A stretch of 47,797 nt of DNA from NCBI GenBank assembly GCA_022843885.1, contig JALHMU010000001.1, positions 1 to 47,797 of the forward strand, in the 5' to 3' direction. Below the pieces are notes generated by a model. That model saw nothing but the letters and a program-made list of their open reading frames with translations, was not told the origin of the DNA and ran no database searches. This DNA comes from Candidatus Peribacteraceae bacterium. GTDB lineage: Bacteria; Patescibacteriota; Gracilibacteria; Peribacterales; Peribacteraceae. A program made the translations under genes and the position numbers. This document shows positions 2,666 through 35,474 of the stretch, piece after piece. Positions within the stretch are counted from its first letter, which is position 1. Every line of letters begins with the position of its first letter.

Positions 2666-3517
2666 ATGATCCATTCGATGCACTTCGCAGACGCACTACA
2701 GGCCAAGATCAACGCAACATCCCCCGTGTGTGTCGGGCTGGATCCGATCGTTTCCAAGCTCCCAGAAGGAGTCGAGAAGTCGGTCGCAGGTGTGAAAGAT
2801 TTTTGTATCGGCATCATCGATAGCACGAAAGACATCGCGTCATCCGTGAAGCCGCAGATGGCATACTTTGAATTGCTCGGTTGGGAAGGAATGAAAGTGT
2901 TTTGGGAAGTGTGTGCGTATGCAAAAAAACAAGGACTCATCGTTATCGCAGATGGAAAGCGCAATGACATCGGCTCAACCTGCGAAGCCTACGCCGATGC
3001 GTATCTCTTCAAAGATTCTCCGATCGATGCACTGACCGTGTCGCCATATCTCGGATCAGATGGCATCAATCCATTCATCGAACGTTGCGAGAAAAACGAA
3101 AAAGGTATCTTCGTCCTTGTGAAGACAAGCAACGCGAGCTCCGGTGAACTGCAAGATCTTCCGGTTGGAGATGAGGCCGTGCATGAACACATGGCACAGC
3201 TTGTCGAAAGTTGGGCGGCACAGAAGATCGGACCAACCACAAATCTCTCCTTCATCGGTGCTGTCGTTGGCGCAACGTATCCGGAAGAACTCAAATATCT
3301 CCGCACGCTCATGTCGCACGTTCCGTTCCTGATCCCAGGCTACGGTGCACAAGGCGGTGGAGCAGAAGATGCCAAGTACGGCTTCTTGCCAGATGGCACA
3401 GGTGCCATCGTCAACGCGGCACGTTCCATCAACTACGCATCAAGCAAAGCAGACTGGCGTGATGCAGCACATGCTGCAGCGGTTGCAATGCGTGACGATC
3501 TTCAGAAGGTTCGTTAG
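2666..3517 (+). CDS. pyrF: Orotidine 5'-phosphate decarboxylase, type 2
   Basis: Motifs VCVGLDP, KPQMAYFE, VIADGKRNDIGST, VSPYLGSDG. The start was moved to ATG 2666 to avoid overlapping the upstream gene. Confidence 0.85.
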   Translation: MIHSMHFADALQAKINATSPVCVGLDPIVSKLPEGVEKSVAGVKDFCIGIIDSTKDIASSVKPQMAYFELLGWEGMKVFWEVCAYAKKQGLIVIADGKRNDIGSTCEAYADAYLFKDSPIDALTVSPYLGSDGINPFIERCEKNEKGIFVLVKTSNASSGELQDLPVGDEAVHEHMAQLVESWAAQKIGPTTNLSFIGAVVGATYPEELKYLRTLMSHVPFLIPGYGAQGGGAEDAKYGFLPDGTGAIVNAARSINYASSKADWRDAAHAAAVAMRDDLQKVR

Positions 3518-15077: not shown

Positions 15078-15941
15078 TTAGAACGGAAGGTCTTCTGCTT
15101 TGATTTCCGATTCGTACTTGATGTCCGGGATTGCCCCAGCTGGAACGGCGTCCATTTCTTGTTCCTGCGATTGCATCGGTGCCTCAGAAGACTTCATGGC
15201 ACTGTCACTCTGGAGTGCGCTCATTGCTTCTGCATTCTTCACACCGAGGATGCTGACCTGATCGGCAATCACTTCAGTTGTGTAGCGCTTCTGACCTTGC
15301 TGCGTTTCCCATGTGCGCGTCTGACTGCGACCAGAAACGTAGGCACGCATGCCTTTCTTTAAGTTCTGACTCAGCGCCTGTGCAAGATCACCCCAGACGA
15401 CGACGTTGTGGAATTCACTGCGCTCTTTCATCTCACCGGATGCTTTGTCTTTCCAGCGTTCATTCGTTGCGACGCTCAAGCTGAGGACGTTCTGTCCGCC
15501 CGTTGTCGTGCGCATTTCAGGATCACGTGTGACGTTGCCGATAACCTGCACACGGTTCAAGCAACCGCTGACGAGTCCTGCACTGCTTGGCAATTCCAGC
15601 TGTCCGCTCTTTGGATCGAGCAGGATCATATCCATCGCGACGATCTTGGTTTTGCTGCGCTTCTCATGCGATTGCTCATCTTCCCAGCTGTCTGTCTGAA
15701 GGCGACCGGAAATGTAGAGCTGTGCGCCGGCACGGACGTATTGTCCTGCGACATCGGCCATGGAACCCCACACCGTGACAGTGTGGAAGCTTTTGCCTTT
15801 CAGCATCTCGCCTGATTCCGTTTTGAATGCATACGGAACAACGATATTCAAATCCGTAACGCTGGTGCCGCCTGGTGTTTGGCGCAGAGTTACTGGTTGT
15901 GTCTGGTAGCCGATGATTTCAATACGGTTGAGTGAGAACAT
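15078..15941 (-). CDS. ssb: Single-stranded DNA-binding protein with two tandem OB folds
   Basis: Two SSB-like OB domains (LNRIEIIGYQTQ...HTVTVWG...LYISGRLQ and LNRVQVIGNVTRDP...HNVVVWG...AYVSGRSQ) and an acidic tail ending EDLPF. Start trimmed to MFSLNRIEIIG. Confidence 0.85.
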   Translation of the reverse strand: MFSLNRIEIIGYQTQPVTLRQTPGGTSVTDLNIVVPYAFKTESGEMLKGKSFHTVTVWGSMADVAGQYVRAGAQLYISGRLQTDSWEDEQSHEKRSKTKIVAMDMILLDPKSGQLELPSSAGLVSGCLNRVQVIGNVTRDPEMRTTTGGQNVLSLSVATNERWKDKASGEMKERSEFHNVVVWGDLAQALSQNLKKGMRAYVSGRSQTRTWETQQGQKRYTTEVIADQVSILGVKNAEAMSALQSDSAMKSSEAPMQSQEQEMDAVPAGAIPDIKYESEIKAEDLPF

Positions 15942-16080
15942 CTCGATTGGGGGAATGGAAGTAAAGGAGGTCTCGTGCACTTTTGTACACCTGCCGTTTT
16001 TGAGCGGCAACCAGATCTGATTGTTTGAAATATTTTTTTGTGTGGCAATCGCATTCTCTTAAGGCCGGTCGGAAGTGGCT

Positions 16081-18765
16081 ATGTTATGCTTCCGTCCAAT
16101 GCGAAAGAGACTTTTGTTCCTGTTGTTTCTTGCCTTGGTCCCTTGCGGAACATGGGCGGCAACCTATGAGAGTCCGAAAAAGCCCCCAATGTACTTCGAT
16201 CCACCGAATGGTTCGGTTGATCCAGAAGCGCATATTATGAGTACAGAACTCGGAGAATTGAATGCGAACGTGCAGGCAGTGCAGTGTGGAGGATGGATCG
16301 ATGACAGCATGGCGGCGTGGGGTGACATCATCGAGAGCAGCATGGAATTTCCTGGCCGTAGCGTGAAACCGTTCGAAAATATTGCGACGGGCATGGGCGG
16401 ACGATGGGGTTTTAGTTATCCGGACAATGCCTATGGCTTCATGTCATCGTGCGATCCACATGACCAACAATTCAACCCGGATCGTCTTTGCTTAATCGCG
16501 GAAGGAACTGCCACACCAGAACAATGTCGTCAGTTGTATGAATATTGGCTGAGCAAAGCACAAGATCCGCCACAGGAATTTTGTGACGACGGCACGGCCA
16601 TTCCGACCTGTTATCAGGACACAGAAGACTGCACCGGTTCCGAATGCCGCACGCCGTTACGTCCGATGTTCCAAGTTGATTGTGATCCGAACGGTGGTGT
16701 GAATGTCACGCGTATCGTGAGTTCGTTCTATCGGCACTACATCACAGATGATCTGAATGCGGGTGCAGAAGTCTGGAGTGAAGGGGAAAACCAAGTCGTG
16801 AAAGCCGACTGTTATGAATACTACGATGAGCAGGATGCGCGTTTTGTCCCTGCAACACCCGATCAAAAACGTTGCGAACTTGTAGAAACCGATGAAAGCG
16901 ATGGAGGAACACCGGAATGGATTACGTTGGCTTCCAAAGAAAACTTTTTTCCTGCTGTCGATCAAAATCAATTCAATCACGAACCTGGTGAGCGCGGAAT
17001 TTTGTCTCCATGGTTCCCAGATACGAAAACGAATATCGCATTCCTCGATACTGCAACCGCAAAAAAGGAGGCAGAGGATGCGGGAGAAGAATATGACGAA
17101 CCGGATATGGAGAAGTTGCTCAGCTATAAACCGAAATCCGAAATTCGCGTGTCTAGCGGCAGTACCAATGGCAAATACCACGTCGATAGTTTTGATGATG
17201 CGACAGATCCAGATAATCCGAACAGCGGCAACCGTGAGATCGTGCGATGGTGGCAAGAACAGGAGCGCCGTTTGCTCAAGATCACGCACGCACCATCCAT
17301 TCGCCTCGTCATTCCCGCACGCTTTGCCACCGGTCTCGACCCTGATGATCCGCTTATTCAGATTGCTGCCGGTGTTCCGAATCAGCCGAAAGGTTTCGTG
17401 GAATTGGAACTCCGTGCAAACAGTGATGACTTTGGTCGACTACTCGATTCATTGCACCGTTCGTGGATCTTGCCTATCGAAGAAGTCAGAATCCCCGTAC
17501 TCGTTCCGATTGTCTCTGAAGCAGAGCTCGATAACATCATTCTGGAATGGAAACTGTGGGGTACACGGTACGACCGCATGGACGATGCTGAGCCATTTAT
17601 CGAACGTTTCGAATCATATAAAAATCAGGTCAATCGTGTGCGACTATTGCGTGAAGCATTGGCGCATTATTTATCGGATGTACTCAACACGCAGCAAGAA
17701 CTCCGAGGATTCTTCGCAAATTGGTACATTCAAAATGCGGAACGATTGCAACTCTGGAATCAGAACGTGTCCGATCGTCAGGAAGTTGCCTATCGCTGGC
17801 GTGAGATCAGTAAAATTTTGATCGATACGCATGATGGTTGCGAATTGCAGTGGTGCTCCAATGCTCGGTACACCGCGCCGATCTATTCCTTGCTCGATCC
17901 CTGGATGCCGGACCGTCCAAGCTTGAAAGGCCTCTCGGAAAATGAAGACTATGTTCTTCCAGATTGGGGCGTGCCACCAGACATTTCCGCCGATTTCTCT
18001 GATCTCACGATCGATGCAGATTCCATGCCGCTTCCTGTGCTTGATGTGACGCAAATCAAAGTACGTTTGCCACATCCTCCAACGGAATCAGGCTTCACCG
18101 GAGATGTGAACGATCTTCCGCAAAACATTCCAACAATTCCGGACGATCAACTCCTCCCTGTCACGGATATTTTCGGCGGTCTCGCACTTCCGCAGGTACA
18201 TCTGCCTGATAACGCAAAGCTCATCGACGAACCACCACCACCCGGAGACTTCGGTCGTGTATATGACGTCCTTGATACGATTCGATTCACACTGGAACAA
18301 GCACAGCAAAACTACTGTGAGTTTACGCGCAGCATCGAAGCACAGAAGGACGGCGAAGATGAGCAAAGTCGTCAGTTCCGCAAGATCGTCCACACCGAAT
18401 TCGATTTGCGTGAACGTGTTGGACGATTGTTTGCCCGCCGCGCACCACTCTGGAAGGAGGATTACATGGGCCGCGGTCAGCGCATTGCGACAGCGGAAGA
18501 TCCCCGAGGAGTGGGCCCTGTCTGTGACGGACCGGATTGCATCAAACTCCCTCCGGAAAAATACACGACGTTCCGTTGGCACATCGAAATCACGCCAGGT
18601 CCGCAATTCATGTTCCAGCAAAAGGCAAATGAAGTTCGCGGTGATACAACGCCATTTGAAGAATGGGACAATCCATACGACAATATCCCCATCAAAAGTC
18701 TGAGAAAAATTCTGACCCCGATCGCACCCGTTCAGAACGACTTGTCCGTTCCGCGTACACCATGA
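16081..18765 (+). CDS. Large exported Cys-rich protein, unknown family (operon gene 1)
   Basis: Signal peptide ...MRKRLLFLLFLALVPCGTWA. About 890 aa, acidic, rich in W, P and C. Possible starts are GTG 16075, ATG 16081 and ATG 16099. Confidence 0.75.
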   Translation: MLCFRPMRKRLLFLLFLALVPCGTWAATYESPKKPPMYFDPPNGSVDPEAHIMSTELGELNANVQAVQCGGWIDDSMAAWGDIIESSMEFPGRSVKPFENIATGMGGRWGFSYPDNAYGFMSSCDPHDQQFNPDRLCLIAEGTATPEQCRQLYEYWLSKAQDPPQEFCDDGTAIPTCYQDTEDCTGSECRTPLRPMFQVDCDPNGGVNVTRIVSSFYRHYITDDLNAGAEVWSEGENQVVKADCYEYYDEQDARFVPATPDQKRCELVETDESDGGTPEWITLASKENFFPAVDQNQFNHEPGERGILSPWFPDTKTNIAFLDTATAKKEAEDAGEEYDEPDMEKLLSYKPKSEIRVSSGSTNGKYHVDSFDDATDPDNPNSGNREIVRWWQEQERRLLKITHAPSIRLVIPARFATGLDPDDPLIQIAAGVPNQPKGFVELELRANSDDFGRLLDSLHRSWILPIEEVRIPVLVPIVSEAELDNIILEWKLWGTRYDRMDDAEPFIERFESYKNQVNRVRLLREALAHYLSDVLNTQQELRGFFANWYIQNAERLQLWNQNVSDRQEVAYRWREISKILIDTHDGCELQWCSNARYTAPIYSLLDPWMPDRPSLKGLSENEDYVLPDWGVPPDISADFSDLTIDADSMPLPVLDVTQIKVRLPHPPTESGFTGDVNDLPQNIPTIPDDQLLPVTDIFGGLALPQVHLPDNAKLIDEPPPPGDFGRVYDVLDTIRFTLEQAQQNYCEFTRSIEAQKDGEDEQSRQFRKIVHTEFDLRERVGRLFARRAPLWKEDYMGRGQRIATAEDPRGVGPVCDGPDCIKLPPEKYTTFRWHIEITPGPQFMFQQKANEVRGDTTPFEEWDNPYDNIPIKSLRKILTPIAPVQNDLSVPRTP

Positions 18766-19499
18766 TCCGCACTCGATCACTTCTCTTGGCATTGATATTG
18801 CTCATGACGTGGGTCACACCGACGTATGCGCAACCGACTCCTGATACCTGCAAAACACAAATTGCAGATCGCATGCAGCTTCTGCAGTACGAATATCGTC
18901 GCGTTGTCTTCGGTAGCACCGGTAGTTCATTGTTTGACGGCAAAGCTGCCGTACTCAAAACAGGCGGCGTATTCAGCGGCGGCACGGTCTATGACTACCG
19001 CGATATCCCCGGCATCTTCGGCACCAAGCATCGCATGACATCGGAACTGATCGATCCTGCCACGGAATCGTATCGTGTTTTCCGCTGCAAGCTCCTCAAC
19101 ATGTGCGATGCCGTGACACAAAATATCCACGGACAACCCGGTCAGGTTCATCATTTGGGCTGCCCAATAGAAAGCGTGGAATATTTCGATCAGTGTGATT
19201 TTTCGGACGAAAATACCCAAGTCGATGCGCAGGACGTGATCGAATTCTGCGCGACCGCAGTCGCCGATACGCTTCAAGCTGAGAAGCAAGCACTCAAGCT
19301 CGCCGTGGCGTACGACTCCGGATATCGATCACTCGTGCAAGTAGCAGGCATGTTCGATTTCTTCCTGAAAGAATTCGCAAAGAGCGCGTTCTTGCCGATG
19401 CAACAAATGGTCGCCTTGCTCGGGAAACTGCATCAGATTCCATGTTTCCTCCCACATTGCGATCTTCCCCCTGACTCCGTCCTCGATCCACCAGAATGA
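18762..19499 (+). CDS. Exported Cys-rich protein, unknown family (operon gene 2)
   Basis: The start ATG overlaps the gene 1 stop (ATGA at 18762-18765). Signal peptide MIRTRSLLLALILLMTWVTPTYA. The mature part has 8 Cys. Confidence 0.7.
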   Translation: MIRTRSLLLALILLMTWVTPTYAQPTPDTCKTQIADRMQLLQYEYRRVVFGSTGSSLFDGKAAVLKTGGVFSGGTVYDYRDIPGIFGTKHRMTSELIDPATESYRVFRCKLLNMCDAVTQNIHGQPGQVHHLGCPIESVEYFDQCDFSDENTQVDAQDVIEFCATAVADTLQAEKQALKLAVAYDSGYRSLVQVAGMFDFFLKEFAKSAFLPMQQMVALLGKLHQIPCFLPHCDLPPDSVLDPPE

Positions 19500-20311
19500 A
19501 CGCCCTGATTCCGTACTACCATCGGTATTTGGCGCTCATGAAACGGCGCCTTGGGTTGGAACCACGTGTTGCAGCATTCCTTTTATCGATCGCAGTTATT
19601 GCGGGCGTTACAGCTGGTGCGTGGATTGCAGCCACTGTCATTCGTGTCACGATTTTTGATGCGCGTGAAGCAGTGGACGTCGACCAATCGCTCGCATGTA
19701 GCGGGAAAGACACGCCATTTGCAGACATGACCGATTTCGAGGTCATCCGTCAGTACTATCAGCTACAAGTCTTTAACATGCTCAATGAACAAGAGAAGAT
19801 TGTTCTTGAGACTGCGGGACAATGTAATGCCATTGATGCCGCCGGATTCCTACCGACATCTTCTCTCAATGGCTTTGCACAAACGCTCCCCGGTTGGCGC
19901 GGCGATATTACATTTGCATCCTTTGAGCCTGTTCTTCTGGAGTTCGCACGCGCCTACGAATGTAAGTTGCAAGAACTCATTGCCAACGCACGCGTTACCG
20001 TCTTAGAAGGTGATGACCTTCCCGATGAAGAACCGCCGGAAACCTACGATCAAGTCGAGTCACGCGTGAATACGTACGTACAAAAACTCGAAGAAGAAAA
20101 GACACAAAGTCGTGTCGCATTCGACCGCACCATGAACACTATTCGGTCATTCCAGATGTCCGCACCCATCATCAAAGAGTTGAAGTGTCTGCAGCTAGAA
20201 TCGATCGATTTACGCAATGCCATGAGCCTCCTCTCCGATGCATCGAGTTGTATGCCGCGTATCTGGGATGCTGTGACGTCACTCCATGAACGTGCCCCCG
20301 AAGAAGAATGA
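19496..20311 (+). CDS. Bitopic membrane protein, unknown family (operon gene 3)
   Basis: ATGA overlap at 19496-19499. A basic N-terminus is followed by the TM segment VAAFLLSIAVIAGVTAGAWIAATVI and an extracytoplasmic domain of about 220 aa. Confidence 0.7.
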   Translation: MNALIPYYHRYLALMKRRLGLEPRVAAFLLSIAVIAGVTAGAWIAATVIRVTIFDAREAVDVDQSLACSGKDTPFADMTDFEVIRQYYQLQVFNMLNEQEKIVLETAGQCNAIDAAGFLPTSSLNGFAQTLPGWRGDITFASFEPVLLEFARAYECKLQELIANARVTVLEGDDLPDEEPPETYDQVESRVNTYVQKLEEEKTQSRVAFDRTMNTIRSFQMSAPIIKELKCLQLESIDLRNAMSLLSDASSCMPRIWDAVTSLHERAPEEE

Positions 20312-22224
20312 GATTCCTTTTGAAACCATCACGGGCATTGCTTCTCTCAGCCATTCTCCTGGCTGCGACAGCGTCACATGCGTCAGCCAGTTGGGGCGAG
20401 GTCTATTTCAACTTCTACAACGCTGCAAAAGAAGAGGCACAGTTCCAATCGGATCTTTCTCCGGAACTGATGGAATACGTGCTCTCGACCATGAACAATA
20501 ATCAGAATAATCCGATGACTCTTTCCGCATCCGACGTGCAGGCCGCACTTCGTGGAGAATTCTTCACGCTTTGCCAGAACCAATCTGAAACATACACATT
20601 GTCGCAATGTACCCAGATCAACGAAGACATTCGGTACCTCGTGCAAAGTGAGAAGGAAATTCAAGCGCTCGCAGATGATCTCCTCACAATTGCAAACAGC
20701 TCGGAGCTCGTCGCAGGTGATGAGGCACATCGTCCCAATTCCTTCGGCGTGCAGACCGCTGCTTTCTCTGTTATTTGGACAGGTACGGGCGCCAGCACAC
20801 TGCAATGGCCGGAAGACGATGCCGTGCAAGATGCGTGGGACAATCTTGAGCAGGCTCTTCAAAGCGAAGGCAGCAACATCGAAAAAGTTGTGGCGCGATT
20901 CCACTTCGGACTGTTCCGCATCCTGCGTGAAGAACAAGCAGGGTGGACGGAACTGGAACCATATGGCGATCAAGTACGCTCGGCGCTGGAAGAGCTCGCA
21001 AACGTACTCGATATCACGCAAGACAATGTCGGCAAAGAAGATCTGGGTGAATACGCAACGCCGACAGTGTCCACTGTCAAAAACATTGCGGTCTGGGCAC
21101 GAGAAGACGATATCGGATTAAATTTTATCTACCCCGAACATCAGCCCCGTTTCTCCGTCGAGATTCCCCGCGCCTATCCGATCTACTATTCCGGTGGCAC
21201 GCTGACTGGCGGCACAATTCTTTCCTATCCGTATCGGTACAATGCAGAAGAGCTTCCTGAGCTCTCGGAAGAGAACGTGCGCAAAAACTTAGCGAGCCCT
21301 TTGTGTAGCCGTATTTCCGGTGCACACGGATATCTCTGTCGCTCGGTCGAAGATGCATCCAAAAACTGTCCGACTGTTCCGGACAATGACTTCGCCATTC
21401 ATCTCATCACCTGCGGTGAGCGCGAAACGATCATCAACCCGGGCATCACTGTGTGCTCGGGCGCCAACTTGATGTCGCAGTTTGATGTACGGCTGAACGG
21501 ACAAGTGGTGAAGCCTGCGCCAGGACAAAATCTTGAAGTCTGCACGCCGGGTACATTCACCACGTTCGATAGTAGCTTCGTGACAAACAGCTGCTTCGTT
21601 GGATTCTGCTTGAAGCAATCGTTCAATGAACACAGTTTGGTCGGCGGGCGAAATCCCATTGCCGTTATGGAATCCACATCACCGTATTTGAGTTGCATGC
21701 GCCCCGATCCACAACTTGGCATGCTCGGAGAATTACCTCCGGTTGCCGCGACGGTTCTGCCTCAATACATCGGACACTTTGCGGTCCAAGCATTCGATCA
21801 TGAACAATGCGAGCGCACTGGTTCGCCTCCAGGCGTATCGGGCGTGTGTAAGTATCGTTCCAATCGCACGTTCGCGATGCCGTTCCTCAGTTTCCTCGCC
21901 TCACCGCTCAATGAAGGTCAACAAGCGCTGACAGATCAAGCACAGGCATTCTTGAAAGATGCTGCCACGGCAATCGGCCAGCAGTATGCGGTGAACCAAG
22001 CCGTGCCGGTCTACGAGAAGCTCATCAAATCACTCGCACAAGGTGTGAATGCAATCTCCGATGTCATTCTTGAACTGCAAGACGCGCCACTCTCAACGGT
22101 GGCATGTCCGTGGAGCGGCACATTATGTAACACGCAATGTAACGACGGATTCGATAACGACGGTGATGGCAAAGCTGACTTAGAAGATGACACCTGCGAA
22201 ACGATCCAAACTCCATTCGAATGA
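20308..22224 (+). CDS. Exported Cys-rich protein with C-terminal Asp-rich metal-binding-like motif (operon gene 4)
   Basis: ATGA overlap at 20308-20311. Signal peptide MRFLLKPSRALLLSAILLAATASHASA. The C-terminus is CNDGFDNDGDGKADLEDDTC. Confidence 0.75.
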   Translation: MRFLLKPSRALLLSAILLAATASHASASWGEVYFNFYNAAKEEAQFQSDLSPELMEYVLSTMNNNQNNPMTLSASDVQAALRGEFFTLCQNQSETYTLSQCTQINEDIRYLVQSEKEIQALADDLLTIANSSELVAGDEAHRPNSFGVQTAAFSVIWTGTGASTLQWPEDDAVQDAWDNLEQALQSEGSNIEKVVARFHFGLFRILREEQAGWTELEPYGDQVRSALEELANVLDITQDNVGKEDLGEYATPTVSTVKNIAVWAREDDIGLNFIYPEHQPRFSVEIPRAYPIYYSGGTLTGGTILSYPYRYNAEELPELSEENVRKNLASPLCSRISGAHGYLCRSVEDASKNCPTVPDNDFAIHLITCGERETIINPGITVCSGANLMSQFDVRLNGQVVKPAPGQNLEVCTPGTFTTFDSSFVTNSCFVGFCLKQSFNEHSLVGGRNPIAVMESTSPYLSCMRPDPQLGMLGELPPVAATVLPQYIGHFAVQAFDHEQCERTGSPPGVSGVCKYRSNRTFAMPFLSFLASPLNEGQQALTDQAQAFLKDAATAIGQQYAVNQAVPVYEKLIKSLAQGVNAISDVILELQDAPLSTVACPWSGTLCNTQCNDGFDNDGDGKADLEDDTCETIQTPFE

Positions 22225-23669
22225 AACTTCGATATCTTCTCCTTCCGGCCCTCCTCCTTCCGCAGCTTGCACTCGCCGCGGACCCACCACCGATTTCGCG
22301 CTTCACGGAACAGATCATCGATCGCGCGTTCGTCGGTACGCAATATGTCGAAGGCATTGCTGAAATCGATAACTGCGAAGATTTCGGCGTAAAAGACAAC
22401 GCACTCATGCTGGCAGGCACGTACATCGGCACATTCATCGATACCGACACACTGCTCACGCGTCAGGCGGAATCACTCAAGAGTATGACAGTCTGTCAGC
22501 GATACGATTTGTATCTCATCGAACGTCAATTACGAAGCATGCAAGACCGCATCGGTGAACTTGCGAACAGCTGCAATGTCGTGGGCTTGAAAACGCTCGC
22601 CCAAGTGCATCAATTCTTGGCAGAAGGATATAAGTCCGTCATGCAAGGCGGACTCGATCCGATCTATACCGACTTCCGACTCCGTCCCGGATATTTCTGG
22701 TTCGGTGATCAGCCCAGTCCGGAGGCCGAAGTATGCCCATTTACAACCGATTACGCTGTCCCCGCGATCGTGAAGCAAGATGATGAAGTATGGAGCTATG
22801 GTTGTGACATCGAAAAGCTCGATTTCATCCTGGATCAAGACATTCCGGAAACATTGCGCAGCGAAGCGGAGCAAGAACGAGTAAAGAAAGAGAAGGCAGA
22901 ATCGGTGAGCCAGGTTCTGTTCGATCAGCTCTTCCAATTCGAACAAATTTTCGCGGATCTGCTCCGTCAAATTCGCGGACCGGATGCCAATGTTCCGACG
23001 CCCCCTGAACAGGTCTTTTCAAACGGTCATCGCGTCATCCAAGGCTGCCGCGAGAACACGGATGAAATCCTGAAAGTGAGCACATGGAATCGAGAAGATA
23101 TTCCGGTCGGTGTCGGACTCACGCCAACATATGACGGCTTCTCCATTTACAAAAATGCCTTCGCAATTCTACGTGATTTCACACGTGCTCGTTCCACCTT
23201 CGGATCTGAGCGACCGTTGCCGGAATGGATCAACACGCAAACAGGAACATTCGTTCCGATGTTCCCCAACGCCGGATTCATGGATGGTTGGAGAGGTGCC
23301 ACTGCAGAACAAGATCGTCGTAGCGCCATCCTGAAAGCAGCCAATGCCGATGCCGTGCAGAAGATGCTCGACATTGCCAAGCCACTGCGCAGTGCGGTGC
23401 TGAAATTCGGTTACATCAGTTCCTTCCCAAAGCCAGATTCTGAAGAAAAAATTCCATTCTTTGCGAGCTACGTGCGTGACGTCGCCTACTTCCTCCGACG
23501 CTCTTGTATTTACAGCGCCTGCACACCATTGCTCGATAACATTCTCCGTCGCACCGTTGATCCAAGTTGCTTCCCATACGGTTCGCAACAGGACATCCGT
23601 TGCGCACATTACAAGTGTTTGGATTTGGAACGCCCGGACGAGTGCCCGGCCGACGAGTGGAATCCATAA
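22221..23669 (+). CDS. Exported Cys-rich protein, unknown family (operon gene 5)
   Basis: ATGA overlap at 22221-22224. Signal peptide MKLRYLLLPALLLPQLALA. Contains 12 Cys. Confidence 0.75.
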   Translation: MKLRYLLLPALLLPQLALAADPPPISRFTEQIIDRAFVGTQYVEGIAEIDNCEDFGVKDNALMLAGTYIGTFIDTDTLLTRQAESLKSMTVCQRYDLYLIERQLRSMQDRIGELANSCNVVGLKTLAQVHQFLAEGYKSVMQGGLDPIYTDFRLRPGYFWFGDQPSPEAEVCPFTTDYAVPAIVKQDDEVWSYGCDIEKLDFILDQDIPETLRSEAEQERVKKEKAESVSQVLFDQLFQFEQIFADLLRQIRGPDANVPTPPEQVFSNGHRVIQGCRENTDEILKVSTWNREDIPVGVGLTPTYDGFSIYKNAFAILRDFTRARSTFGSERPLPEWINTQTGTFVPMFPNAGFMDGWRGATAEQDRRSAILKAANADAVQKMLDIAKPLRSAVLKFGYISSFPKPDSEEKIPFFASYVRDVAYFLRRSCIYSACTPLLDNILRRTVDPSCFPYGSQQDIRCAHYKCLDLERPDECPADEWNP

Positions 23670-24024: not shown

Positions 24025-24372
24025 ATGCTGCAACCGTTTGATGATCGAAGTCCTGGAAATCGGCAAAAGGAAATTGTGCATTCTCAAAGGGAAATGGATC
24101 CTCACTTAAAGGAAGTTCTTGATTCAGCAACATCAGATCATGTTTTTGATAGAGGAACAGGAATGTATGAAATGCTTATTACAAGTCTGGAGCATCACTT
24201 GAAAAACCCAAAAAATGCTCCATTTGTGTCTAAAATTCTGAATGCATTAGTTGAACTGAGAGACAGAGTAAAAATTGATCCTCTTCGCGCTAAAACTCGA
24301 AGGGAATTGCGAAAAGTCGATCCTCTATTGAATGATATTCTTGGTCCAAGAGGACCGATGGAGTTGGAGTAA
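24025..24372 (+). CDS. Hypothetical soluble helical protein (115 aa) in the AT-rich islet
   Basis: ORF with coding-like composition and no recognisable motif. Confidence 0.45.
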   Translation: MLQPFDDRSPGNRQKEIVHSQREMDPHLKEVLDSATSDHVFDRGTGMYEMLITSLEHHLKNPKNAPFVSKILNALVELRDRVKIDPLRAKTRRELRKVDPLLNDILGPRGPMELE

Positions 24373-24377
24373 TTTTA

Positions 24378-24392
24378 GAGCTCCTTGTTGGA
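24378..24392 (+). repeat. Right copy of the direct repeat flanking the AT-rich islet
   Basis: GAGCTCCTTGTTGGA, paired with 23675-23689. Confidence 0.4.
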
Positions 24393-24487
24393 CATTATCC
24401 AGCATTTTTCGATTAACTACTATGTTTCCTGAAAAAGCCCAAAATCGGCCCGTAACGCGTCAGGTATTCTGCTAGACTCGAAATCCC

Positions 24488-27400
24488 ATGGATTCAAAGG
24501 ATTTCGTACATCTGCACTGTCATTCAACCTACTCATTGCTGGAAGCGCTCCCCGCTCCGGATGAGATCGTCGAACGTGCCAAAGAATTAGGTCAAACTGC
24601 CGTTGGTTTGACGGACAAAGGCTACGCACACGGACTCATCGAATTTTATAAAGCTGCAAAGTCCGCGAAACTCAAACCTATTCTCGGTATGCAAACGTAC
24701 GTCGCCGCACGTTCGCGTCATGACAAAGAAAAAGGAACCGATACGAAGAGTTATCCACTCGTGTTGCTCGCGGAGAATGAAGAGGGATATCAAAACTTGT
24801 TATCACTTGCGACGCTCGCAGCACTTCAAGGCATGTATTACAAACCACGTGTCGATGCCGAACTTTTGTCGCAACACGGCAAAGGTCTCATCGCATTATC
24901 GGGTCCGCTTTCTGGTGCATTGCCGCAAGCCGCACTCGCAGAAGATCGTGAACGTATGAAGATGCTCGTCGAGCAATACCGATCATTCTTCGGTGAGAAC
25001 AATCTGTACTTCGAATTGATGGATTTACCGAATGTCCCAGGTCAAGCGGAGGCAAATCAACAGCTCATCAAATTTGGAAAAGAATTCAATGTACCGCTCG
25101 TCGTCGGTGGCGGCTCGCATTACTGTCGTATCGATGATGCAGAGGCACAGGATGTGCTGCTCTGCATTCAAAAGAACTCGCAAGTAAACGATCCAGGTCG
25201 ATTCTCGATGCGTGACAGCGACCTTTCCATGCGCCCATTTGAGGAACTAGAGAAAGCATTTAGTCATGTGCCGGAAGCACTTGAAAACACGCGTGTGATT
25301 GCTGACCGCTGCAATGTCCCGATCGAATTCGGGAAATATCGCATTCCAAGTTTCCCCGTTCCAGAAGGAGAAACCGAAGCAACGCTGCTTGAAAAGCTCT
25401 GCGCGGCCGGACTCGAAACGCGCTATGGATTTACCATCGACAAGATTCCATCCGACAAACAATCGATCGTGGATCGCATGCAATTTGAATTGAATGTTAT
25501 CAACACGATGGGCTTCGCCGGATACTTCTTGATCGTCGCGGATTTCATCAGTGAAGCGAAGCGACGTGGGATTACCGTAGGCCCTGGACGTGGCTCTGCT
25601 GCGGGCTCCATCGTGAGTTACCTCCTCGACATTACAACACTCGATCCGGTCGAACACGGCCTTCTCTTCGAGCGTTTCTTGAATCCGGATCGCATCTCGA
25701 TGCCAGATATCGATATGGACTTCGCTGATACGCGTCGTGATGAAGTATTGGAATATGTGCGCGAAAAATATGGCGCCGATCACGTCGTCCAAATCTGTAC
25801 ATTCGGAACACTTGCTGCTCGTGCCGCCGTCAAAGACGTGGGCCGCGTCTATGGCGTTCCATTCACGGAGATGAACGAACTTGTGAAGCTCATTTCCGAT
25901 CGTCCCGGTACAAGTTTGGACGAAGCACTCACATCATCCGAACTCAAAGCAGTCGTCGATTCTAGTGAGACCTATAAGAAGATCATCGAAGTTGCTTTGA
26001 AGCTGGAAGGCAAAGCACGCCACGTCTCTGTGCACGCGTGTGGTGTCATCATCACGCCACGACCAGCAGTGGAATACACAGCACTCCAGCGCGCACCGAA
26101 GGATCAGGACATCGTCATCACGCAGTACGGTGCCAAACCACTCGAAGCACTCGGTCTGCTCAAAATGGACTTCCTCGGTCTCAAAAACCTCACGATCATT
26201 CAGACTGCGCTCCTCATCATCGAGCGTTTGCACAACGTGAAGATCGACATCGCGCGTATTCCGACTGATGACAAAGATACATTCGCACTTCTCTCACGCG
26301 GTGAGACAACCGGTGTGTTCCAGCTCGAATCTGCGGGCATGCGTCGCTACTTGAAACAGCTCAAACCAAGCGCCTTCGATGACATCACAGCTATGGTGTC
26401 GTTGTATCGCCCGGGTCCGATGGAAAAGATTCCGGATTACATCAAACGCAAGCACGGTCAGAAAGAAGTGTCGTACATCCATCCAGACATGGAGCCGATT
26501 CTGGAGCCAACATACGGTGTCGGTATTTATCAGGAGCAGATTCTTGAAATGGCACGTGTCTTCGCCGGATTCACACTCGGTGAAGCTGACTTGTTGCGCC
26601 GTGCGATCGGAAAGAAAATCAAAAGCGAACTGGATGCACAGCGTGAGAAATTCATTCAGGGCACCATCGACAAAGGCTATGGCAAAAAACTCGGTGTCGC
26701 CCTGTTCGATGACGTTATCACGCCGTTCGCAAACTATGGTTTCAACAAGTCTCACGGTGCCAGCTACGCGCGTATTGCGTATGAAACCGCCTATCTCAAA
26801 GCGCACTACCCGAGCGAGTTCATGGCTGCGCTGCTCTCCAGTGAAAACGGTGACACCGAACGTATTTCCATCGAAATTGCAGAAGCAAAGATGATGGGCA
26901 TTCGTGTGCTGCCACCAGATATCAACGAATCACTCGCGCATTTCACCGCATTGCCGGACGGAAGTATTCGTTTCGGTCTCACGGCTATCAAAGGTGTTGG
27001 CGAAAGTTCTGTTCGTCAGATCATCGAGATCCGCGATGGCACCGAAGGACAGGGCCAGGGTCGCTTCGCACACTTAGAGGATTTCGCAAAGCGTGTGCCA
27101 AGTAAAATTTTGAATAAGAAAACACTCGAAGCCTTCGCAAAAGCCGGCGCACTCGATTCCCTCGGTGACCGCGGAACCATCGTCCATCAGTACGAACGCA
27201 TCATCGATTACTGTAAGTCTGCTGGAGACATCGGTGCATCGCAGACAGATCTCTTCGGCGCTATGGAAGCCGATACAGATGCAGCGAAGATCGCATTTGA
27301 CCCAGAGCCACCTGCTACGAATACCGAGAAGCTCATGTGGGAAAAAGAAACATTGGGTTTGTATGTCTCCAGTCACCCACTTGCAGGACTGTCCAAATAC

Positions 27401-28210
27401 ATTGCGAAGAAAGCACGTCTCAGCGACAGCTTCACAAAGAAAGATGTGAACCGAAAAGTCACCGTCGCAGGCATCGTTGAATCCATCAAGAAAATGCGCA
27501 CCAAGAAAGGCGAGACGATGGCCATTCTCACATTGGAAGATCCATCGGGGGTCATGGAAGTGACACTCTTCCCACGCACGTATGCGCAGTTTGCGGAAGT
27601 CCTCGAAAAACCCGACACCTTACTCGTCGTTGGGGGCACGCTCGACTTCCGTGGTGGCCAATTCCAAGTTCGCGCCGATGCCATCAAACGCGCTGTCCTC
27701 TCCGTGATGGCTGAGAAAGCGAAGGCTGAAGGCTTCTATGACGAAGAGGAGGCAAAGAACGGCATCGTACGCCGACGTGAGCAGACTGAGGACAAGGTCG
27801 ATGAAGTCGATGAAGAAGGCAACGTCGTGGCTGGGACAACTGTCTCCGTTGCCGAGGTTGCACCAGTCATACAGGAAGATGGTTTCCTTGGTCCGATCGC
27901 CGTGTGGATGCTTGCAGGCATGGACCCCGCGGAAGCATTAACGCAGCTTGGTCTCGAGGCACCTGCTCCGACGGATTCTGCAACGCGCATTTCCATTCAT
28001 ACCGTGACACTCCCGGCCAGTGCACCAAAACAACTCCTCATGGAACTCAAAGAAGTCTTTGAATTGTTCCCGGGTTCACAGAAAATCCAATTGCAGATTG
28101 GCAGCCGTATCGTGCCTGTTCCAATGACGGTCACAGTCTCCCCGATCCTCGAGAACCGCATTGAAAAGGTCCTAAAAAAGTATGCAGTGGAGTTGCATTC
28201 AGAAGTGTAA
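24488..28210 (+). CDS. dnaE: DNA polymerase III alpha subunit
   Basis: PHP domain FVHLHCHSTYSLLEA, palm and fingers (MPDIDMDF, GLLKMDFLGLKNL, FNKSHGASYA), and an OB fold. 1240 aa. Confidence 0.95.
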   Translation: MDSKDFVHLHCHSTYSLLEALPAPDEIVERAKELGQTAVGLTDKGYAHGLIEFYKAAKSAKLKPILGMQTYVAARSRHDKEKGTDTKSYPLVLLAENEEGYQNLLSLATLAALQGMYYKPRVDAELLSQHGKGLIALSGPLSGALPQAALAEDRERMKMLVEQYRSFFGENNLYFELMDLPNVPGQAEANQQLIKFGKEFNVPLVVGGGSHYCRIDDAEAQDVLLCIQKNSQVNDPGRFSMRDSDLSMRPFEELEKAFSHVPEALENTRVIADRCNVPIEFGKYRIPSFPVPEGETEATLLEKLCAAGLETRYGFTIDKIPSDKQSIVDRMQFELNVINTMGFAGYFLIVADFISEAKRRGITVGPGRGSAAGSIVSYLLDITTLDPVEHGLLFERFLNPDRISMPDIDMDFADTRRDEVLEYVREKYGADHVVQICTFGTLAARAAVKDVGRVYGVPFTEMNELVKLISDRPGTSLDEALTSSELKAVVDSSETYKKIIEVALKLEGKARHVSVHACGVIITPRPAVEYTALQRAPKDQDIVITQYGAKPLEALGLLKMDFLGLKNLTIIQTALLIIERLHNVKIDIARIPTDDKDTFALLSRGETTGVFQLESAGMRRYLKQLKPSAFDDITAMVSLYRPGPMEKIPDYIKRKHGQKEVSYIHPDMEPILEPTYGVGIYQEQILEMARVFAGFTLGEADLLRRAIGKKIKSELDAQREKFIQGTIDKGYGKKLGVALFDDVITPFANYGFNKSHGASYARIAYETAYLKAHYPSEFMAALLSSENGDTERISIEIAEAKMMGIRVLPPDINESLAHFTALPDGSIRFGLTAIKGVGESSVRQIIEIRDGTEGQGQGRFAHLEDFAKRVPSKILNKKTLEAFAKAGALDSLGDRGTIVHQYERIIDYCKSAGDIGASQTDLFGAMEADTDAAKIAFDPEPPATNTEKLMWEKETLGLYVSSHPLAGLSKYIAKKARLSDSFTKKDVNRKVTVAGIVESIKKMRTKKGETMAILTLEDPSGVMEVTLFPRTYAQFAEVLEKPDTLLVVGGTLDFRGGQFQVRADAIKRAVLSVMAEKAKAEGFYDEEEAKNGIVRRREQTEDKVDEVDEEGNVVAGTTVSVAEVAPVIQEDGFLGPIAVWMLAGMDPAEALTQLGLEAPAPTDSATRISIHTVTLPASAPKQLLMELKEVFELFPGSQKIQLQIGSRIVPVPMTVTVSPILENRIEKVLKKYAVELHSEV

Positions 28211-32225: not shown

Positions 32226-33182
32226 ATGGATCCACAGCGAAAAGACCCGGCACAACCAAATGATTTTGAGGCGTCCGCTGCGAAAGCGCGCGAACATTAT
32301 GCCGAAACCGATCGCATCAGAAATGAACGCCGCCAAGGAAAATCAGAACATCTTGAACGTGAGAAGGAAGCATTTCTTGCGGCGGAAAAAGAGAAGCAGA
32401 TGAACACGGAAGAGCGAGAAGAGTGGTTGAAATCGGAAAAGAAGAAGCGTCAGGAGATCGAAGTCGATAAGCAGCGTCGAGACGCTGAGCTCGCTGCTCG
32501 TGATGTGGAAAAACAGAAGAAGGTCGAAGCTGCAAAAAAGCGTGAGGAGTACATGAAGGACTTGAATGATATGGCTCGCATGAAGCTTGCCGAGAAGCAG
32601 AAGAAATACGGCACGGATCGTTTGCGCGAAGACTTGATGAAGCAAGCTGATCAAGAAGAGCGCACGAAGCGTGAGCAATACGATCACGAATTACGCGATG
32701 CATTCATCGCTGCTGATGAAGTCGAAAAGAAAAAGAAGCTTGAGGTCGAGAACGAACGCAAGCGTGCACTCATCGAAGCGCAGATGATCCTCGATCGCCA
32801 TGTGAAAGAATTAGCGGAAGTACAGCACGCTGGCTTGCTCATGATCGAAGAAGAAGAGCGATCGGCTATGCAAACCATCGCACGGGGCCGCAATGCCCCC
32901 GACGTTGCGAGAAAGATGAAGATTGACGTCGCAATCCAGTCGCGCCAGAAACGTGCAGCCTTGGACCGGGAATTGGAACAGAAGCGTAGCAAGTTGGAAT
33001 CGGACTTCCGAAATGAGAAGCAGCGCATCGATACCGTCGCCATGCGTGCCATTCAGGCGAACGAAGCCGATGCTCGTCGCGTAAAAGCGGAAGCCGAGAC
33101 TGAGCAGCGCAGAAAGATGCACGAAGCGGAAACGATTGCTGCACAGAAACGCAGCGAAGCCAGACGCGCCGAGCTATCGTAA
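32226..33182 (+). CDS. Highly charged E/K/R-rich helical protein
   Basis: 318 aa dominated by E, K, R, A and Q with no hydrophobic segments. Confidence 0.55.
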   Translation: MDPQRKDPAQPNDFEASAAKAREHYAETDRIRNERRQGKSEHLEREKEAFLAAEKEKQMNTEEREEWLKSEKKKRQEIEVDKQRRDAELAARDVEKQKKVEAAKKREEYMKDLNDMARMKLAEKQKKYGTDRLREDLMKQADQEERTKREQYDHELRDAFIAADEVEKKKKLEVENERKRALIEAQMILDRHVKELAEVQHAGLLMIEEEERSAMQTIARGRNAPDVARKMKIDVAIQSRQKRAALDRELEQKRSKLESDFRNEKQRIDTVAMRAIQANEADARRVKAEAETEQRRKMHEAETIAAQKRSEARRAELS

Positions 33183-33332: not shown

Positions 33333-35474
33333 TTATGAAGGCAACTTCCCCATCGGGATGCTGAATCCGCCTGGAGCAGGCTGACTAGCGGTGTTTGTTG
33401 CAGGAGCAGGTTCTTGCACAGGTGTTTCCACGGGAGCAGATGCTGTGTTCACCTCTGGCGTGACACCTGCAATTGCATTCATGCCTTCCAAGTGTGTCAT
33501 GGGTTCAACGCCAGCGATCTTGTTCATGCCAGTAAGGAAATCGACGGGTTCCGCTTTCACTTCTGGCGCATTCGATTCATTGACTGTCTGAAGCATATCC
33601 AAATGTTTCTCCATTACTTTCCCAAGCTCTTCATCAGAAGTGGCGATGAAGAAAGGTCCATCACCCTGCAGCATTTTAGAAAATTGCTGTAATTCTGGAA
33701 GATTTTCCACTTCTTTCTTCATCAATTCCGCCATGTCTTTTGGAATTGTAAGTGTTAATGTTTCCGGTTCAGCTTTCAACATGGAGAGCATTTCAGCTGT
33801 CATAGTTTCCATCAACGCCTTCTCTTTTTCATATCCTTTCAAAGGCATTTTTTCGAACACAGCATGAATTTCTGCCGCAAGTGCATCCTTATCGGCAAGT
33901 TTTTCAAGTCCTTTCTTCGTATCCTGAATTGAATCGACATCGGCTTTCAGTGCAACGCTTTCAGCATTCAGCGCGTCGATTGATTTCTGATTTGAAGCGA
34001 TCTGCGTATCGATGTCTTTGAGCTGTGTTTCGATCTGTGTTTTACGCTCAAGAGCAGTTTTGCTTTCCGGATCAGTGGCAGTTGCATCGACTTTGGACAA
34101 TGCGCCGAGCTCAGCTGTAAGCGCATTTTTCTGCGCACCCAACCCATCATTACTCTTTTTCAAGGCATCTTGCTGGTCAGTTTTTTCTTTGATCTGACCT
34201 TCTTTTTTGGTCACGAATTCCGTGACGGTCGCAGGTTTTTCTTTCGTGCCCATGTCCGTCAATTCTTTCTTGATTCGCTGTTCGCGATCTTGCTTCGATT
34301 CGTTTGCATCAATTTTTTCTTTTGGTTTCTCTGCCGAAGCGACTTCTGCATTCTTGAACAATGAGCCGTCGCCCATGCGTACAATGAGTTCACCGATCAA
34401 CGCGATACCTTCCAGAATTGCTTTCGTGCGCTCTTTCGAATCACCACTCTTCACTTTTTCAAGAACGCTTGTGAAGCGATCGGAAATATCATCGATGTTT
34501 GATTTTGGCTCATCTGTGGGCTTTTCAGCTTTTCCTCCTTCTGTTGTAGCAGCGGTTTTCACTTCAGGTGTGCCTCCGGAAATCTTATTCATTTCCGCAG
34601 CAAAATCGACAGGTTCAGGAGCTGGAGCTGGAGGAGGCGCAATGTTATCGGCGCCAGAAATGACATTTATTCCGTTTACAGCGCCCGTTGCAACAGCTGC
34701 TGCCTCCGGCGCTTTATTGATCGTTTCCTGAGGCAATGCCTGTTGCATGCTCACAATCTGCGAACGACGCGACTGCATTTCTGGGATGAATCTATTGAGC
34801 TGATCTACACGTGGTGAACCCGTCATTGCAATCGCGCTCAATTCCGGACCGGCCAGACCTAAGTAGGTATCAATTGCCGTCAAAATTTTCTGAAGGTTTT
34901 CCTTCGAGTATCCGCTGATTTCTGCATCACCTTCAAATTTCTTAATATCGAAATAGGCTTTGTCGGTCGCATTATCTTCGGGGGTTTCTTTTTGTTCAGA
35001 TGCTACAGGACTTTGTGGCTGTGTTTCTGTCGCAGCAGTTTTTGTTTCTTGTGTATTCACTGCCATTTCACCCTGCTTCGCAGCAAAGGCCGGATAGCCC
35101 GGACCAAATTCTGCCTGTGCAGCAGCTTCTGCAGCCGGGTTCTCTAACGTGGCTGTGCCCTGAGCAACAACCTTTCCATCTTGCGTGACAGTGACTTCCA
35201 CATTTCCAACAGCTTTCTTCGCATCAGCTTCGATCTTTGTGAGTTGCTGGTCTGTAAGCTGTAAGACAGCGTCGCCTTTCTGCACATCTTGTTTCTGCGT
35301 GTCAGCTGCTTCCCCCAAGTGATTCAATTGCGAGATCTTCTCATTCGCATTGAGTGATTTCTGCTCTTCCTTCACTTCTTGTACATCTGGAACCTGTGGC
35401 TTGATTTCACCACCTTCTGCAAAGTGGAGCAGACGGGCTTCGCGTGAATCAAACATAGAGAAGAAAGTGCGCAT
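33333..35474 (-). CDS. Large coiled-coil / low-complexity protein with an internal repeated motif
   Basis: 713 aa, no signal peptide, long charged helical stretches. PVDF..MNKI.G..PEV.TA occurs at aa 288-309 and again near aa 643-681. Confidence 0.65.
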   Translation of the reverse strand: MRTFFSMFDSREARLLHFAEGGEIKPQVPDVQEVKEEQKSLNANEKISQLNHLGEAADTQKQDVQKGDAVLQLTDQQLTKIEADAKKAVGNVEVTVTQDGKVVAQGTATLENPAAEAAAQAEFGPGYPAFAAKQGEMAVNTQETKTAATETQPQSPVASEQKETPEDNATDKAYFDIKKFEGDAEISGYSKENLQKILTAIDTYLGLAGPELSAIAMTGSPRVDQLNRFIPEMQSRRSQIVSMQQALPQETINKAPEAAAVATGAVNGINVISGADNIAPPPAPAPEPVDFAAEMNKISGGTPEVKTAATTEGGKAEKPTDEPKSNIDDISDRFTSVLEKVKSGDSKERTKAILEGIALIGELIVRMGDGSLFKNAEVASAEKPKEKIDANESKQDREQRIKKELTDMGTKEKPATVTEFVTKKEGQIKEKTDQQDALKKSNDGLGAQKNALTAELGALSKVDATATDPESKTALERKTQIETQLKDIDTQIASNQKSIDALNAESVALKADVDSIQDTKKGLEKLADKDALAAEIHAVFEKMPLKGYEKEKALMETMTAEMLSMLKAEPETLTLTIPKDMAELMKKEVENLPELQQFSKMLQGDGPFFIATSDEELGKVMEKHLDMLQTVNESNAPEVKAEPVDFLTGMNKIAGVEPMTHLEGMNAIAGVTPEVNTASAPVETPVQEPAPATNTASQPAPGGFSIPMGKLPS

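Follow-up and report, generated by a model that had tools for sequence, protein, structure and literature searches.

What is built, outside the cytoplasm of an uncultured bacterium, by five consecutive genes whose products match no described protein family? The question is raised by positions 16081-23669 of a 47,797-nt stretch of contig JALHMU010000001.1 (assembly GCA_022843885.1, Candidatus Peribacteraceae bacterium), hereafter the window, in which five plus-strand genes, ORF1 to ORF5 (ORF, open reading frame), lie between ssb and dnaE. The answer to which we lean, if only slightly, is that this region is one Candidatus Peribacteria operon for one disulfide-stabilised, membrane-tethered complex of five lineage-specific extracytoplasmic proteins. 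The parts of this answer carry different weights: that the genes make up a co-expressed and functionally linked exported module is very probable, that the five products join in a physical hetero-oligomeric complex is, on sequence grounds, reasonably probable, and that this complex serves surface contact or adhesion is a tentative proposal drawn from topology, architecture and lifestyle only.

The anatomy of the locus, as given by the ORF table and by reading the junction sequences, is as follows, where the overlap counts among relatives come from a start-picking procedure that favoured starts near the previous stop:

16099-18765, plus strand: ORF1, 888 aa (894 aa with a start at 16081; 16075 is a further possible start)
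18762-19499, plus strand: ORF2, 245 aa, its ATG lying inside a longer mechanical ORF (18663-19499)
19496-20311, plus strand: ORF3, 271 aa
20308-22224, plus strand: ORF4, 638 aa
22221-23669, plus strand: ORF5, 482 aa
18762-18765, plus strand: ORF1/ORF2 overlap, ATGA; a 4-nt overlap in 33 of 47 loci
19496-19499, plus strand: ORF2/ORF3 overlap, ATGA; a 4-nt overlap in 17 of 49 loci and an 8-nt overlap in 19 of 49
20308-20311, plus strand: ORF3/ORF4 overlap, ATGA; a 4-nt overlap in 29 of 46 loci
22221-22224, plus strand: ORF4/ORF5 overlap, ATGA; a 4-nt overlap in 32 of 46 loci
16085-16090, plus strand: -10-like hexamer TATGCT, at -14 to -9 from the ORF1 ATG at 16099

The original prediction, made from the letters of the window, had described five plus-strand genes of these sizes joined by four ATGA overlaps; the ORF table bears out the genes, and all four junctions read as it had them, each start ATG having its TG in common with the preceding TGA stop. 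Across relatives, the junctions overlap or abut in nearly all loci. The same prediction had ORF1 run from 16081 to 18765, of which the end stands and the start gives way to the ATG at 16099. This start appears likelier because the Met at 16099 (M7 when counted from 16081) is the aligned conserved start among relatives and because TATGCT lies downstream of 16081, so that a start at 16081 would precede the transcript. As for the gene ends, the aligned genes of relatives stop in the same places with TAA or TAG, which is why the five ends are taken as real and genetic code 25 (TGA read as Gly, as in related Gracilibacteria) is rejected; the long housekeeping ORFs are moreover intact under code 11.

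Most genes of the window lack a Shine-Dalgarno motif and carry instead a TAnnnT box 9-14 nt before their start, as is the case upstream of 5175 (the gene of an SLH-domain protein, minus strand), 24488 (dnaE), 32226, 38887 and 43278 (minus strand), a pattern that points to a Peribacteria genome in which mRNAs as a rule have no leader or a very short one. A -10-like hexamer, a pattern defined post hoc, is found at most 40 nt upstream of ORF1 in 34 of 50 loci, compared with 3 of 190 cases for ORF2 to ORF5 and 2.3% of random positions, and the TATGCT at 16085-16090 is probably the only promoter of the operon, whose mRNA would then have no leader or a very short one. In the window copy, neither a Shine-Dalgarno motif nor a -10 box of their own was found for ORF2 to ORF5, and a generic promoter and terminator scan showed no excess of signals inside the module. 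Since these four genes have no such signals and start inside the preceding stops, we infer that they are translated by ribosomes terminating at the overlapping stop, so that their translation would be expected to depend on termination-reinitiation.

Four of the five products are predicted substrates of the Sec pathway and signal peptidase I, as their signal peptides combine a basic n-region, a hydrophobic core and an A-x-A-type site: ORF1 (an M-RKR-hydrophobic start, residues 1-20, cut TWA/A), ORF2 (residues 1-23, cut TYA/Q), ORF4 (residues 1-27, cut ASA/S) and ORF5 (residues 1-19, cut ALA/A). ORF3 has a basic N-terminus and one transmembrane (TM) helix at residues 26-44 (nt 19571-19627), with a predicted N-in/C-out orientation. 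These four signal peptides and this single helix had been proposed at the outset and are found again in the window sequence; they are no artefacts of wrong start codons, as a hydrophobic N-terminal segment occurs in 225 of the 228 members of the five families, almost none of which has a TM-like segment beyond residue 80. The window ORF3, with its simple TM anchor, lacks the lipobox [LVI][ASTVI][GAS]C; of 46 homologues, 15 have a lipobox signal peptide in place of that anchor, and all 15 belong to a divergent clade. ORF3 can accordingly be read as the membrane tether of the module, with the tethering conserved and the lipidation clade-specific. Lipoprotein processing is indeed represented in the lineage, by a peptidyl-prolyl isomerase (PPIase) with LLAGC in the window and by LspA in the syntenic neighbourhood.

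The second common trait of the five proteins is their cysteine content, for which the counts of the original prediction proved accurate: the window proteins hold 17 (16 in the mature part), 8, 5, 17 and 12 Cys from ORF1 to ORF5. Cys makes up 1.9-3.3% of residues in the module against 0.71% in the 27 other proteins of the window, and "Cys-rich" is here a relative term, meaning about 3-4 times the level of neighbouring genes. When 44-49 homologues of each family are aligned, most invariant columns turn out to be Cys, and columns with at least 80% Cys number 14 in ORF1, 8 in ORF2, 5 in ORF3, 13 in ORF4 and 8 in ORF5; the conserved number is odd in ORF3 and ORF4 only, which are encoded by adjacent genes. 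Peribacteria genomes are reported, in the passages of a genome study considered here, to encode a disulfide-forming protein (PMC4736985).

How widely, and in what form, is this module kept? When one genome of each GTDB species was scanned with an ORF1 alignment, the ORF1 family turned up in 48 species-level genomes, 47 of which are named Peribacteria, Peribacteraceae or Peregrinibacteria and one only "bacterium". Five hidden Markov models (HMMs), built from the first six loci and run on all stop-to-stop ORFs of 54 loci and the window, recovered all five families, in the order 1-2-3-4-5 and on a single strand, from the window and 44 further distinct loci, of which all but one go under a Peribacteria or Peregrinibacteria name. 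Incomplete modules are always cut by a contig end (in locus L050, ORF1 was seen by tblastn only), and no partial or rearranged module occurs on any contig long enough to tell, so that the gene-order conservation proposed as a check of the original prediction is present throughout. In most loci the order is GltX, a small membrane protein, MurB and SSB (minus strand), then the module, then DnaE and YrdC; ssb lies upstream in about 42 loci and dnaE downstream in about 33, counts that were raised after flank clusters 2 and 7 were recognised as antisense ORFs inside dnaE and ssb. One relative, L004, has DnaJ upstream and a prepilin peptidase downstream of an intact module. Mean identity to the window is 28-36% for the module proteins versus 61-67% for GltX, MurB, SSB and DnaE, and order and completeness are kept in 45 loci at identities down to about 22%; such a rate of divergence looks typical of exposed extracytoplasmic proteins. 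The GC content of the five genes (0.50-0.52) and their GC at third codon positions (0.50-0.58) are similar to those of neighbouring genes. Because of this composition and of the ssb/module/dnaE synteny across the lineage, the module is best described as a vertically inherited chromosomal unit, native rather than recently acquired, as had been surmised from composition.

The expectation that the proteins belong to no recognisable family was likewise sustained. Searches of Pfam, NCBIfam, PHROGs and PADLOC returned nothing significant for the five window proteins, and Pfam searches with every member of the five family alignments gave scattered single-member matches (E > 1e-4), apart from accessory parts, namely a T4SS_pilin match in the ORF5 of L026 and an M76 match in one ORF4. 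Against PDB sequences, phmmer gave no significant match either, and the five family profiles reached a best E of 0.21. Weak matches to DUF5106, SF1-HH, Goodbye, PARG_cat_N, Talin_R4, LegK1 and RacA were dismissed as noise, and coiled-coil matches in the PDB (dynein stalk, syntaxin, TRIM63; E 0.2-0.7) indicate long helices only. A word-indexed search of 5.8 billion proteins gave 5-6 relatives per query, and zero for a concatenated ORF2-5 protein query; an exhaustive HMMER search of 1.84 billion proteins gave 246 representatives of the ORF1 family at 50% identity, all of them long proteins and 181 of them below 1e-30. The structural check proposed with the original prediction had the same outcome, as Foldseek found no neighbour of the ORF1 model (best E 4.4 in PDB, to generic long helices, and 0.86 in BFVD) or of the ORF5 model (best E 2.2 in PDB, with generic helix-bundle matches).

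Two of the subunits could be given a shape. The AlphaFold2 model of ORF1, from 78 family sequences, reaches a pLDDT of 82.7 and a pTM of 0.76. After the signal peptide, it has a Cys-rich, beta-rich domain (residues about 60-320) that holds 11 of the 14 conserved Cys, continues with an alpha/beta region and a helical hairpin including a 61-residue helix (494-554) of about 9 nm, and proceeds toward the C-terminus through a long beta-hairpin (628-655) and a well-ordered Pro-rich extended segment to a helical C-terminal region. The C-terminal core is conserved, and an invariant motif H-x-E-x-D-L-x-E-R occupies residues 765-773. The ORF5 model, from a 15-sequence alignment, is of moderate quality (pLDDT 69.5, pTM 0.57) and nearly all alpha-helical, with long helices at 210-252 (43 residues) and 347-401 (55 residues); this family has 8 invariant Cys. 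At the sequence level, all 8 Cys of ORF2 are invariant in 49 homologues, ORF3 has 5 invariant Cys, and ORF4 has a helical N-terminal part, a Cys-rich centre and a helical C-terminal part, with the following feature at its C-terminus:

22129-22206, plus strand: acidic Cys-flanked repeat, ORF4 residues 608-633, CNDGFDNDGDGKADLEDDTC

This segment matches the NCBIfam acidic double-disulfide repeat NF033662 with an E of 4.8e-5 and 23 bits, below the cut-off of 41 bits, and its D.D.DG..D motif recurs in 4 of 44 ORF4 homologues only, so that it is taken as a variable, peripheral decoration, probably a Ca2+-binding one.

Relatives carry further additions, which are informative as to how the subunits may work together. 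One is a Cys-rich domain of about 150-200 aa with an invariant HExxH, a conserved Glu about 25 residues downstream and 7 invariant Cys (pattern …YLxxHELVHAxQxC..PPG…CC..EGEAY..QC…). Of about 22 divergent-clade loci, 15 have it in the middle of ORF4, after a "GPDVC" motif; in at least four loci and 7 further representatives it sits close to the ORF1 N-terminus:

L006:191-844, L011:9260-9913, L013:3572-4225 and L014:4029-4682: HExxH domain in ORF1
L004:8663-9316, L031:14899-15552 and 13 further loci: HExxH domain in ORF4

The ORF1-borne and ORF4-borne copies align well, and the presence of the same domain in either protein can be taken as "Rosetta-stone"-type evidence that the two subunits act jointly. 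Its insertion marks two Cys-rich regions, the N-terminal domain of ORF1 and the centre of ORF4, as the tolerant and presumably exposed part of the module. HExxH is absent from all five window proteins and from most of the clade of the window. In Pfam, the domain has weak zincin matches (M76 at 1.9e-4, M91 and PhageMetallopep), all below curated thresholds, and its profile finds no match among PDB sequences. Some ORF1 homologues have N-terminal extensions of 400-700 aa; Pfam searches with six long homologues gave only a sub-threshold match, in P0124 (1430 aa), where residues 352-393 resemble a collagen triple-helix repeat (3.8e-5) that, if real, would hint at trimerisation or a fibrous extension. 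Finally, the ORF5 of L026 (L026:9368-11428, 687 aa) continues into a Pro/Ser linker and a C-terminal two-TM domain matching T4SS_pilin (PF18895, 8.8e-9), and is the sole family member with a C-terminal membrane anchor.

On this basis, we propose that ORF1, ORF2, ORF4 and ORF5 would be exported via their signal peptides, that ORF3 would stay in the membrane, and that about 24 conserved disulfides would form after export. An interchain disulfide between ORF3 and ORF4 may tie the soluble subunits to the membrane anchor, a bond that is proposed because the two genes are adjacent and their products alone have odd conserved Cys counts. The long helices of ORF1 (61 residues) and ORF5 (43 and 55 residues) would form an elongated stalk, and the two Cys-rich regions, N-terminal in ORF1 and central in ORF4, would make up an exposed, lineage-variable end, the site at which other Peribacteria may have added acidic repeats, N-terminal extensions or the zincin-like HExxH domain. 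Such a structure could contact a partner or host cell or the outer layers of the envelope, for adhesion or spacing, rather than take part in an enzyme pathway. Within this range, a role in surface contact or adhesion is favoured because the distal decorations vary, because the proteins diverge fast and on account of what is known of the group: exported Cys-rich proteins with a proposed attachment function are described for Peribacteria in the passages considered (PMC4736985), and the Absconditabacteria, a related group, live as epibiotic predators and have elaborate surfaces (PMC8080830). A bolder version of the proposal, which we regard as doubtful, would make the module a novel surface machine, elongated, disulfide-stapled and tethered by ORF3, that defines an envelope or host-contact organelle of Peribacteria with interchangeable distal "tools" (by lineage, a zincin protease, acidic Ca-binding repeats or N-terminal extensions on the exposed end) and that, as part of the same doubtful reading, comprises at least two (ORF1 and ORF5) and possibly five folds without known structural relatives.

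Several considerations weigh against the proposed tethered complex or its role in contact. The ORF5 model is only moderately confident, models cover ORF1 and ORF5, and the statement that these have no structural relative holds for PDB and BFVD only, the two collections covered by the search. The argument from odd Cys counts presupposes the oxidation of every conserved Cys. Shine-Dalgarno motifs are rare genome-wide, so that their absence before ORF2 to ORF5 is weak evidence of coupling, and ATGA overlaps and operons are common, so that equal stoichiometry is not proven by them. The window copy appears to hold no functional domain, and its strict single copy beside replication and cell-wall genes fits a housekeeping role in the envelope at least as well as a role in contact.

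Indeed, this last point leads to the alternative that survives best, rather unlikely as we consider it to be, namely that the module is a housekeeping envelope machine without any cell contact, either a strut or spacer from the membrane to the wall or S-layer, or a scaffold for the assembly of peptidoglycan or a surface polymer. Its single copy, fixed order and fixed place beside murA-ftsW-murG-murB, ssb and dnaE across the lineage would be natural for such a machine, as would a membrane tether that is kept though its chemistry shifts from TM helix to lipid; helices of about 9 nm could span the wall zone, and genes for an SLH-domain wall protein, M23 peptidases and a D,D-carboxypeptidase lie in the same window. 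However, the divergent ssb separates the module from murB, so that they are not one transcription unit; the module is intact in L004 despite different flanks; and its proteins diverge about twice as far as the neighbouring housekeeping proteins. Nor did Pfam detect in any family member an SLH, LysM or other wall-binding domain, or a SPOR or transglycosylase domain, when the same method finds the SLH domains of the window protein at 5e-25.

It is improbable, next, that the module is a tethered hydrolase or effector, that is, a protease or toxin delivered to the surface of prey or host by subunits acting as a scaffold. What speaks for it is the HExxH…E domain (gluzincin-like and Cys-rich) borne by ORF4 or, in at least four loci and the 7 representatives, by ORF1, together with its weak zincin matches and the invariant H-x-E-x-D-L-x-E-R of ORF1. 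Yet the absence of this domain from the window module and most of its clade marks it as accessory rather than core, the zincin assignment falls below every curated threshold and has no PDB sequence behind it, and no known toxin or secretion component lies nearby. We find it hardly probable, too, that five independent exported proteins merely share an operon for co-regulation and form no physical complex. The families are indeed mutually unrelated as far as can be detected: in hhalign comparisons of all pairs only signal peptides align (probability 40% for the N-termini of ORF4 and ORF5, 1.4% for ORF2 and ORF3), and a forced alignment of ORF2 and ORF3, which lines up three Cys, is not significant. 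Independence, however, sits badly with an order and completeness that do not vary in 45 loci at such low identities, with conserved overlapping junctions, with a membrane anchor confined to one subunit, with a domain that migrates between ORF1 and ORF4 and with the complementary odd Cys counts of ORF3 and ORF4.

A distant pilus or fibre system of the chaperone-usher, Pam, type IV or sortase kind is very improbable. Lineage-specific pilus operons of exported proteins, missed by earlier annotation, have been described in the Candidate Phyla Radiation (CPR) (bioRxiv 10.64898/2026.03.03.709456), and the sizes of ORF1 and ORF2 are superficially like those of an usher and a chaperone. However, none of the 228 family members has a class III prepilin motif (G, then after the cut F/M-T/S-L-I-E) in its first 50 residues or LPxTG in its last 60, neither the ORF1 nor the ORF5 model is Ig-like or finds a pilin, chaperone or usher in Foldseek, and no small repeated pilin gene, ATPase or sortase adjoins the module. 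That the module is a remnant of a mobile element, phage or defence island is scarcely conceivable, as the T4SS_pilin-like domain that could suggest it belongs to a single relative (L026), composition is host-like, the module keeps its place on the chromosome throughout the lineage, no match to it came from PHROGs, PADLOC, phage records, plasmid records or IMG/VR, and no integrase or repeats were seen nearby. Of conjugative or type IV secretion systems, no VirB4/VirD4 ATPase, VirB6/8-like protein or VirB2-like pilin lies in or next to the module in the window and L001 to L006, the one trace being the two-TM tail of the L026 ORF5.

As to the genomic setting, the module of the window is flanked by ssb (15078-16010, minus strand) upstream and dnaE (24488-28210) downstream. 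The SSB is a protein of about 300 aa with two OB-fold repeats per polypeptide (…NRIEIIGY… and …NRVQVIGN…), resembling the two-domain SSBs of Deinococcus-Thermus, and is encoded upstream of the module in most loci. Between ORF5 and dnaE, an 820-nt spacer has one 115-aa ORF (24025-24372) without a family match, followed by a terminator-like hairpin (24386-24404); this ORF is not conserved, dnaE starting about 120 nt after ORF5 in L001. The core genes of the window encode ComM, PyrF, the SLH-domain protein, MurA, FtsW, MurG, the lipoprotein PPIase, GltX, MurB, SSB, DnaE, YrdC, AspS, a LysM-M23 protein, a D,D-carboxypeptidase, an FtsQ-like protein and TopA, many of which have functions in the cell wall and division. 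The SLH protein (3514-5175, minus strand) is exported and has two SLH domains (5e-25), so that at least one protein would be anchored to a wall polymer in S-layer fashion, which serves as background for envelope models. Between gltX and murB, 21 loci (for example L012:7139-7633 and L023:7376-7864) encode a conserved, unannotated protein of about 160 aa that has two TM helices at its C-terminal end; no window counterpart clustered with it. Two other ORFs of the window, of 713 aa (33333-35474, minus strand, within a region of strong negative AT skew) and 318 aa (32226-33182, plus strand), have zero Cys and no Pfam match.

Peribacteria, a group of uncultured CPR bacteria, are believed to rely on other cells, and the module offers a handle on their envelope and on their contact with partners. 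It is one of few lineage-wide, single-copy, co-evolving gene sets without a counterpart elsewhere; it supplies five new protein families, including the confidently modelled 888-aa ORF1 with no PDB or BFVD neighbour, as well as a testable assembly model with a membrane tether, an interchain disulfide and a variable distal end, and it could be used as a marker set for recognising Peribacteria. If attachment or envelope spacing were its genuine role, it would be a new solution where others use pili, S-layers or lipoprotein tethers. This weight is tempered by the fact that CPR genomes are full of exported proteins of this unassigned kind and that the module is confined to one uncultured lineage.

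How, then, does the module compare with what is known? By sequence, and by structure as far as the ORF1 and ORF5 models go, it appears far from every described system. The accessory domain of relatives has HExxH and a downstream Glu as in gluzincins, which likens it to zincins such as M76/Atp23, M91 and PhageMetallopep; it differs from them in being unusually Cys-rich, with 7 invariant Cys, and window ORF1 and ORF4 are without it. The ORF4 segment 608-633 corresponds to one repeat unit of NF033662, an Asp-rich D-x-D-x-D-G loop between Cys, which does not identify ORF4. Pam pili are made of Ig-like pilins joined by donor-strand exchange, with chaperone- and usher-like partners, and are found chiefly in Saccharimonadia and Microgenomatia (Troman et al., bioRxiv 10.64898/2026.03.03.709456). 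Like the Pam operon, whose surface structure is thought to contact hosts, the module encodes CPR-restricted exported proteins that sequence annotation leaves unnamed; it differs in the mixed alpha/beta structure of ORF1, which includes a long helical hairpin, and in the all-helical ORF5, ORF2 to ORF4 being compared by sequence only. The "Nap" adhesion complexes of Mycoplasma (P1/P40-P90 and P140/P110) are operon-encoded, membrane-anchored hetero-oligomers of reduced, host-dependent bacteria, whose subunits, unlike the module proteins, each have a C-terminal TM anchor of their own and are not disulfide-rich. They may be a functional analogue, as a lead only, given that no similarity to them surfaced in searches that included no comparison aimed at Nap.

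Closest in lineage are the large Cys-rich extracellular proteins of Ca. Peribacter riflensis, which average 1,655 aa and about 7% Cys, include a 14-gene cluster, vary between strains and, according to their authors, may serve attachment or rigidity (Anantharaman et al. 2016, PMC4736985). The passages of that article considered here do not mention the five-gene module (PMC4736985). The two sets have in common their lineage, their Sec export, their enrichment in Cys and their lack of functional annotation; the module differs by its smaller proteins (245-890 aa, 1.9-3.3% Cys) and by being single-copy, fixed in order, overlapped from gene to gene and present lineage-wide.

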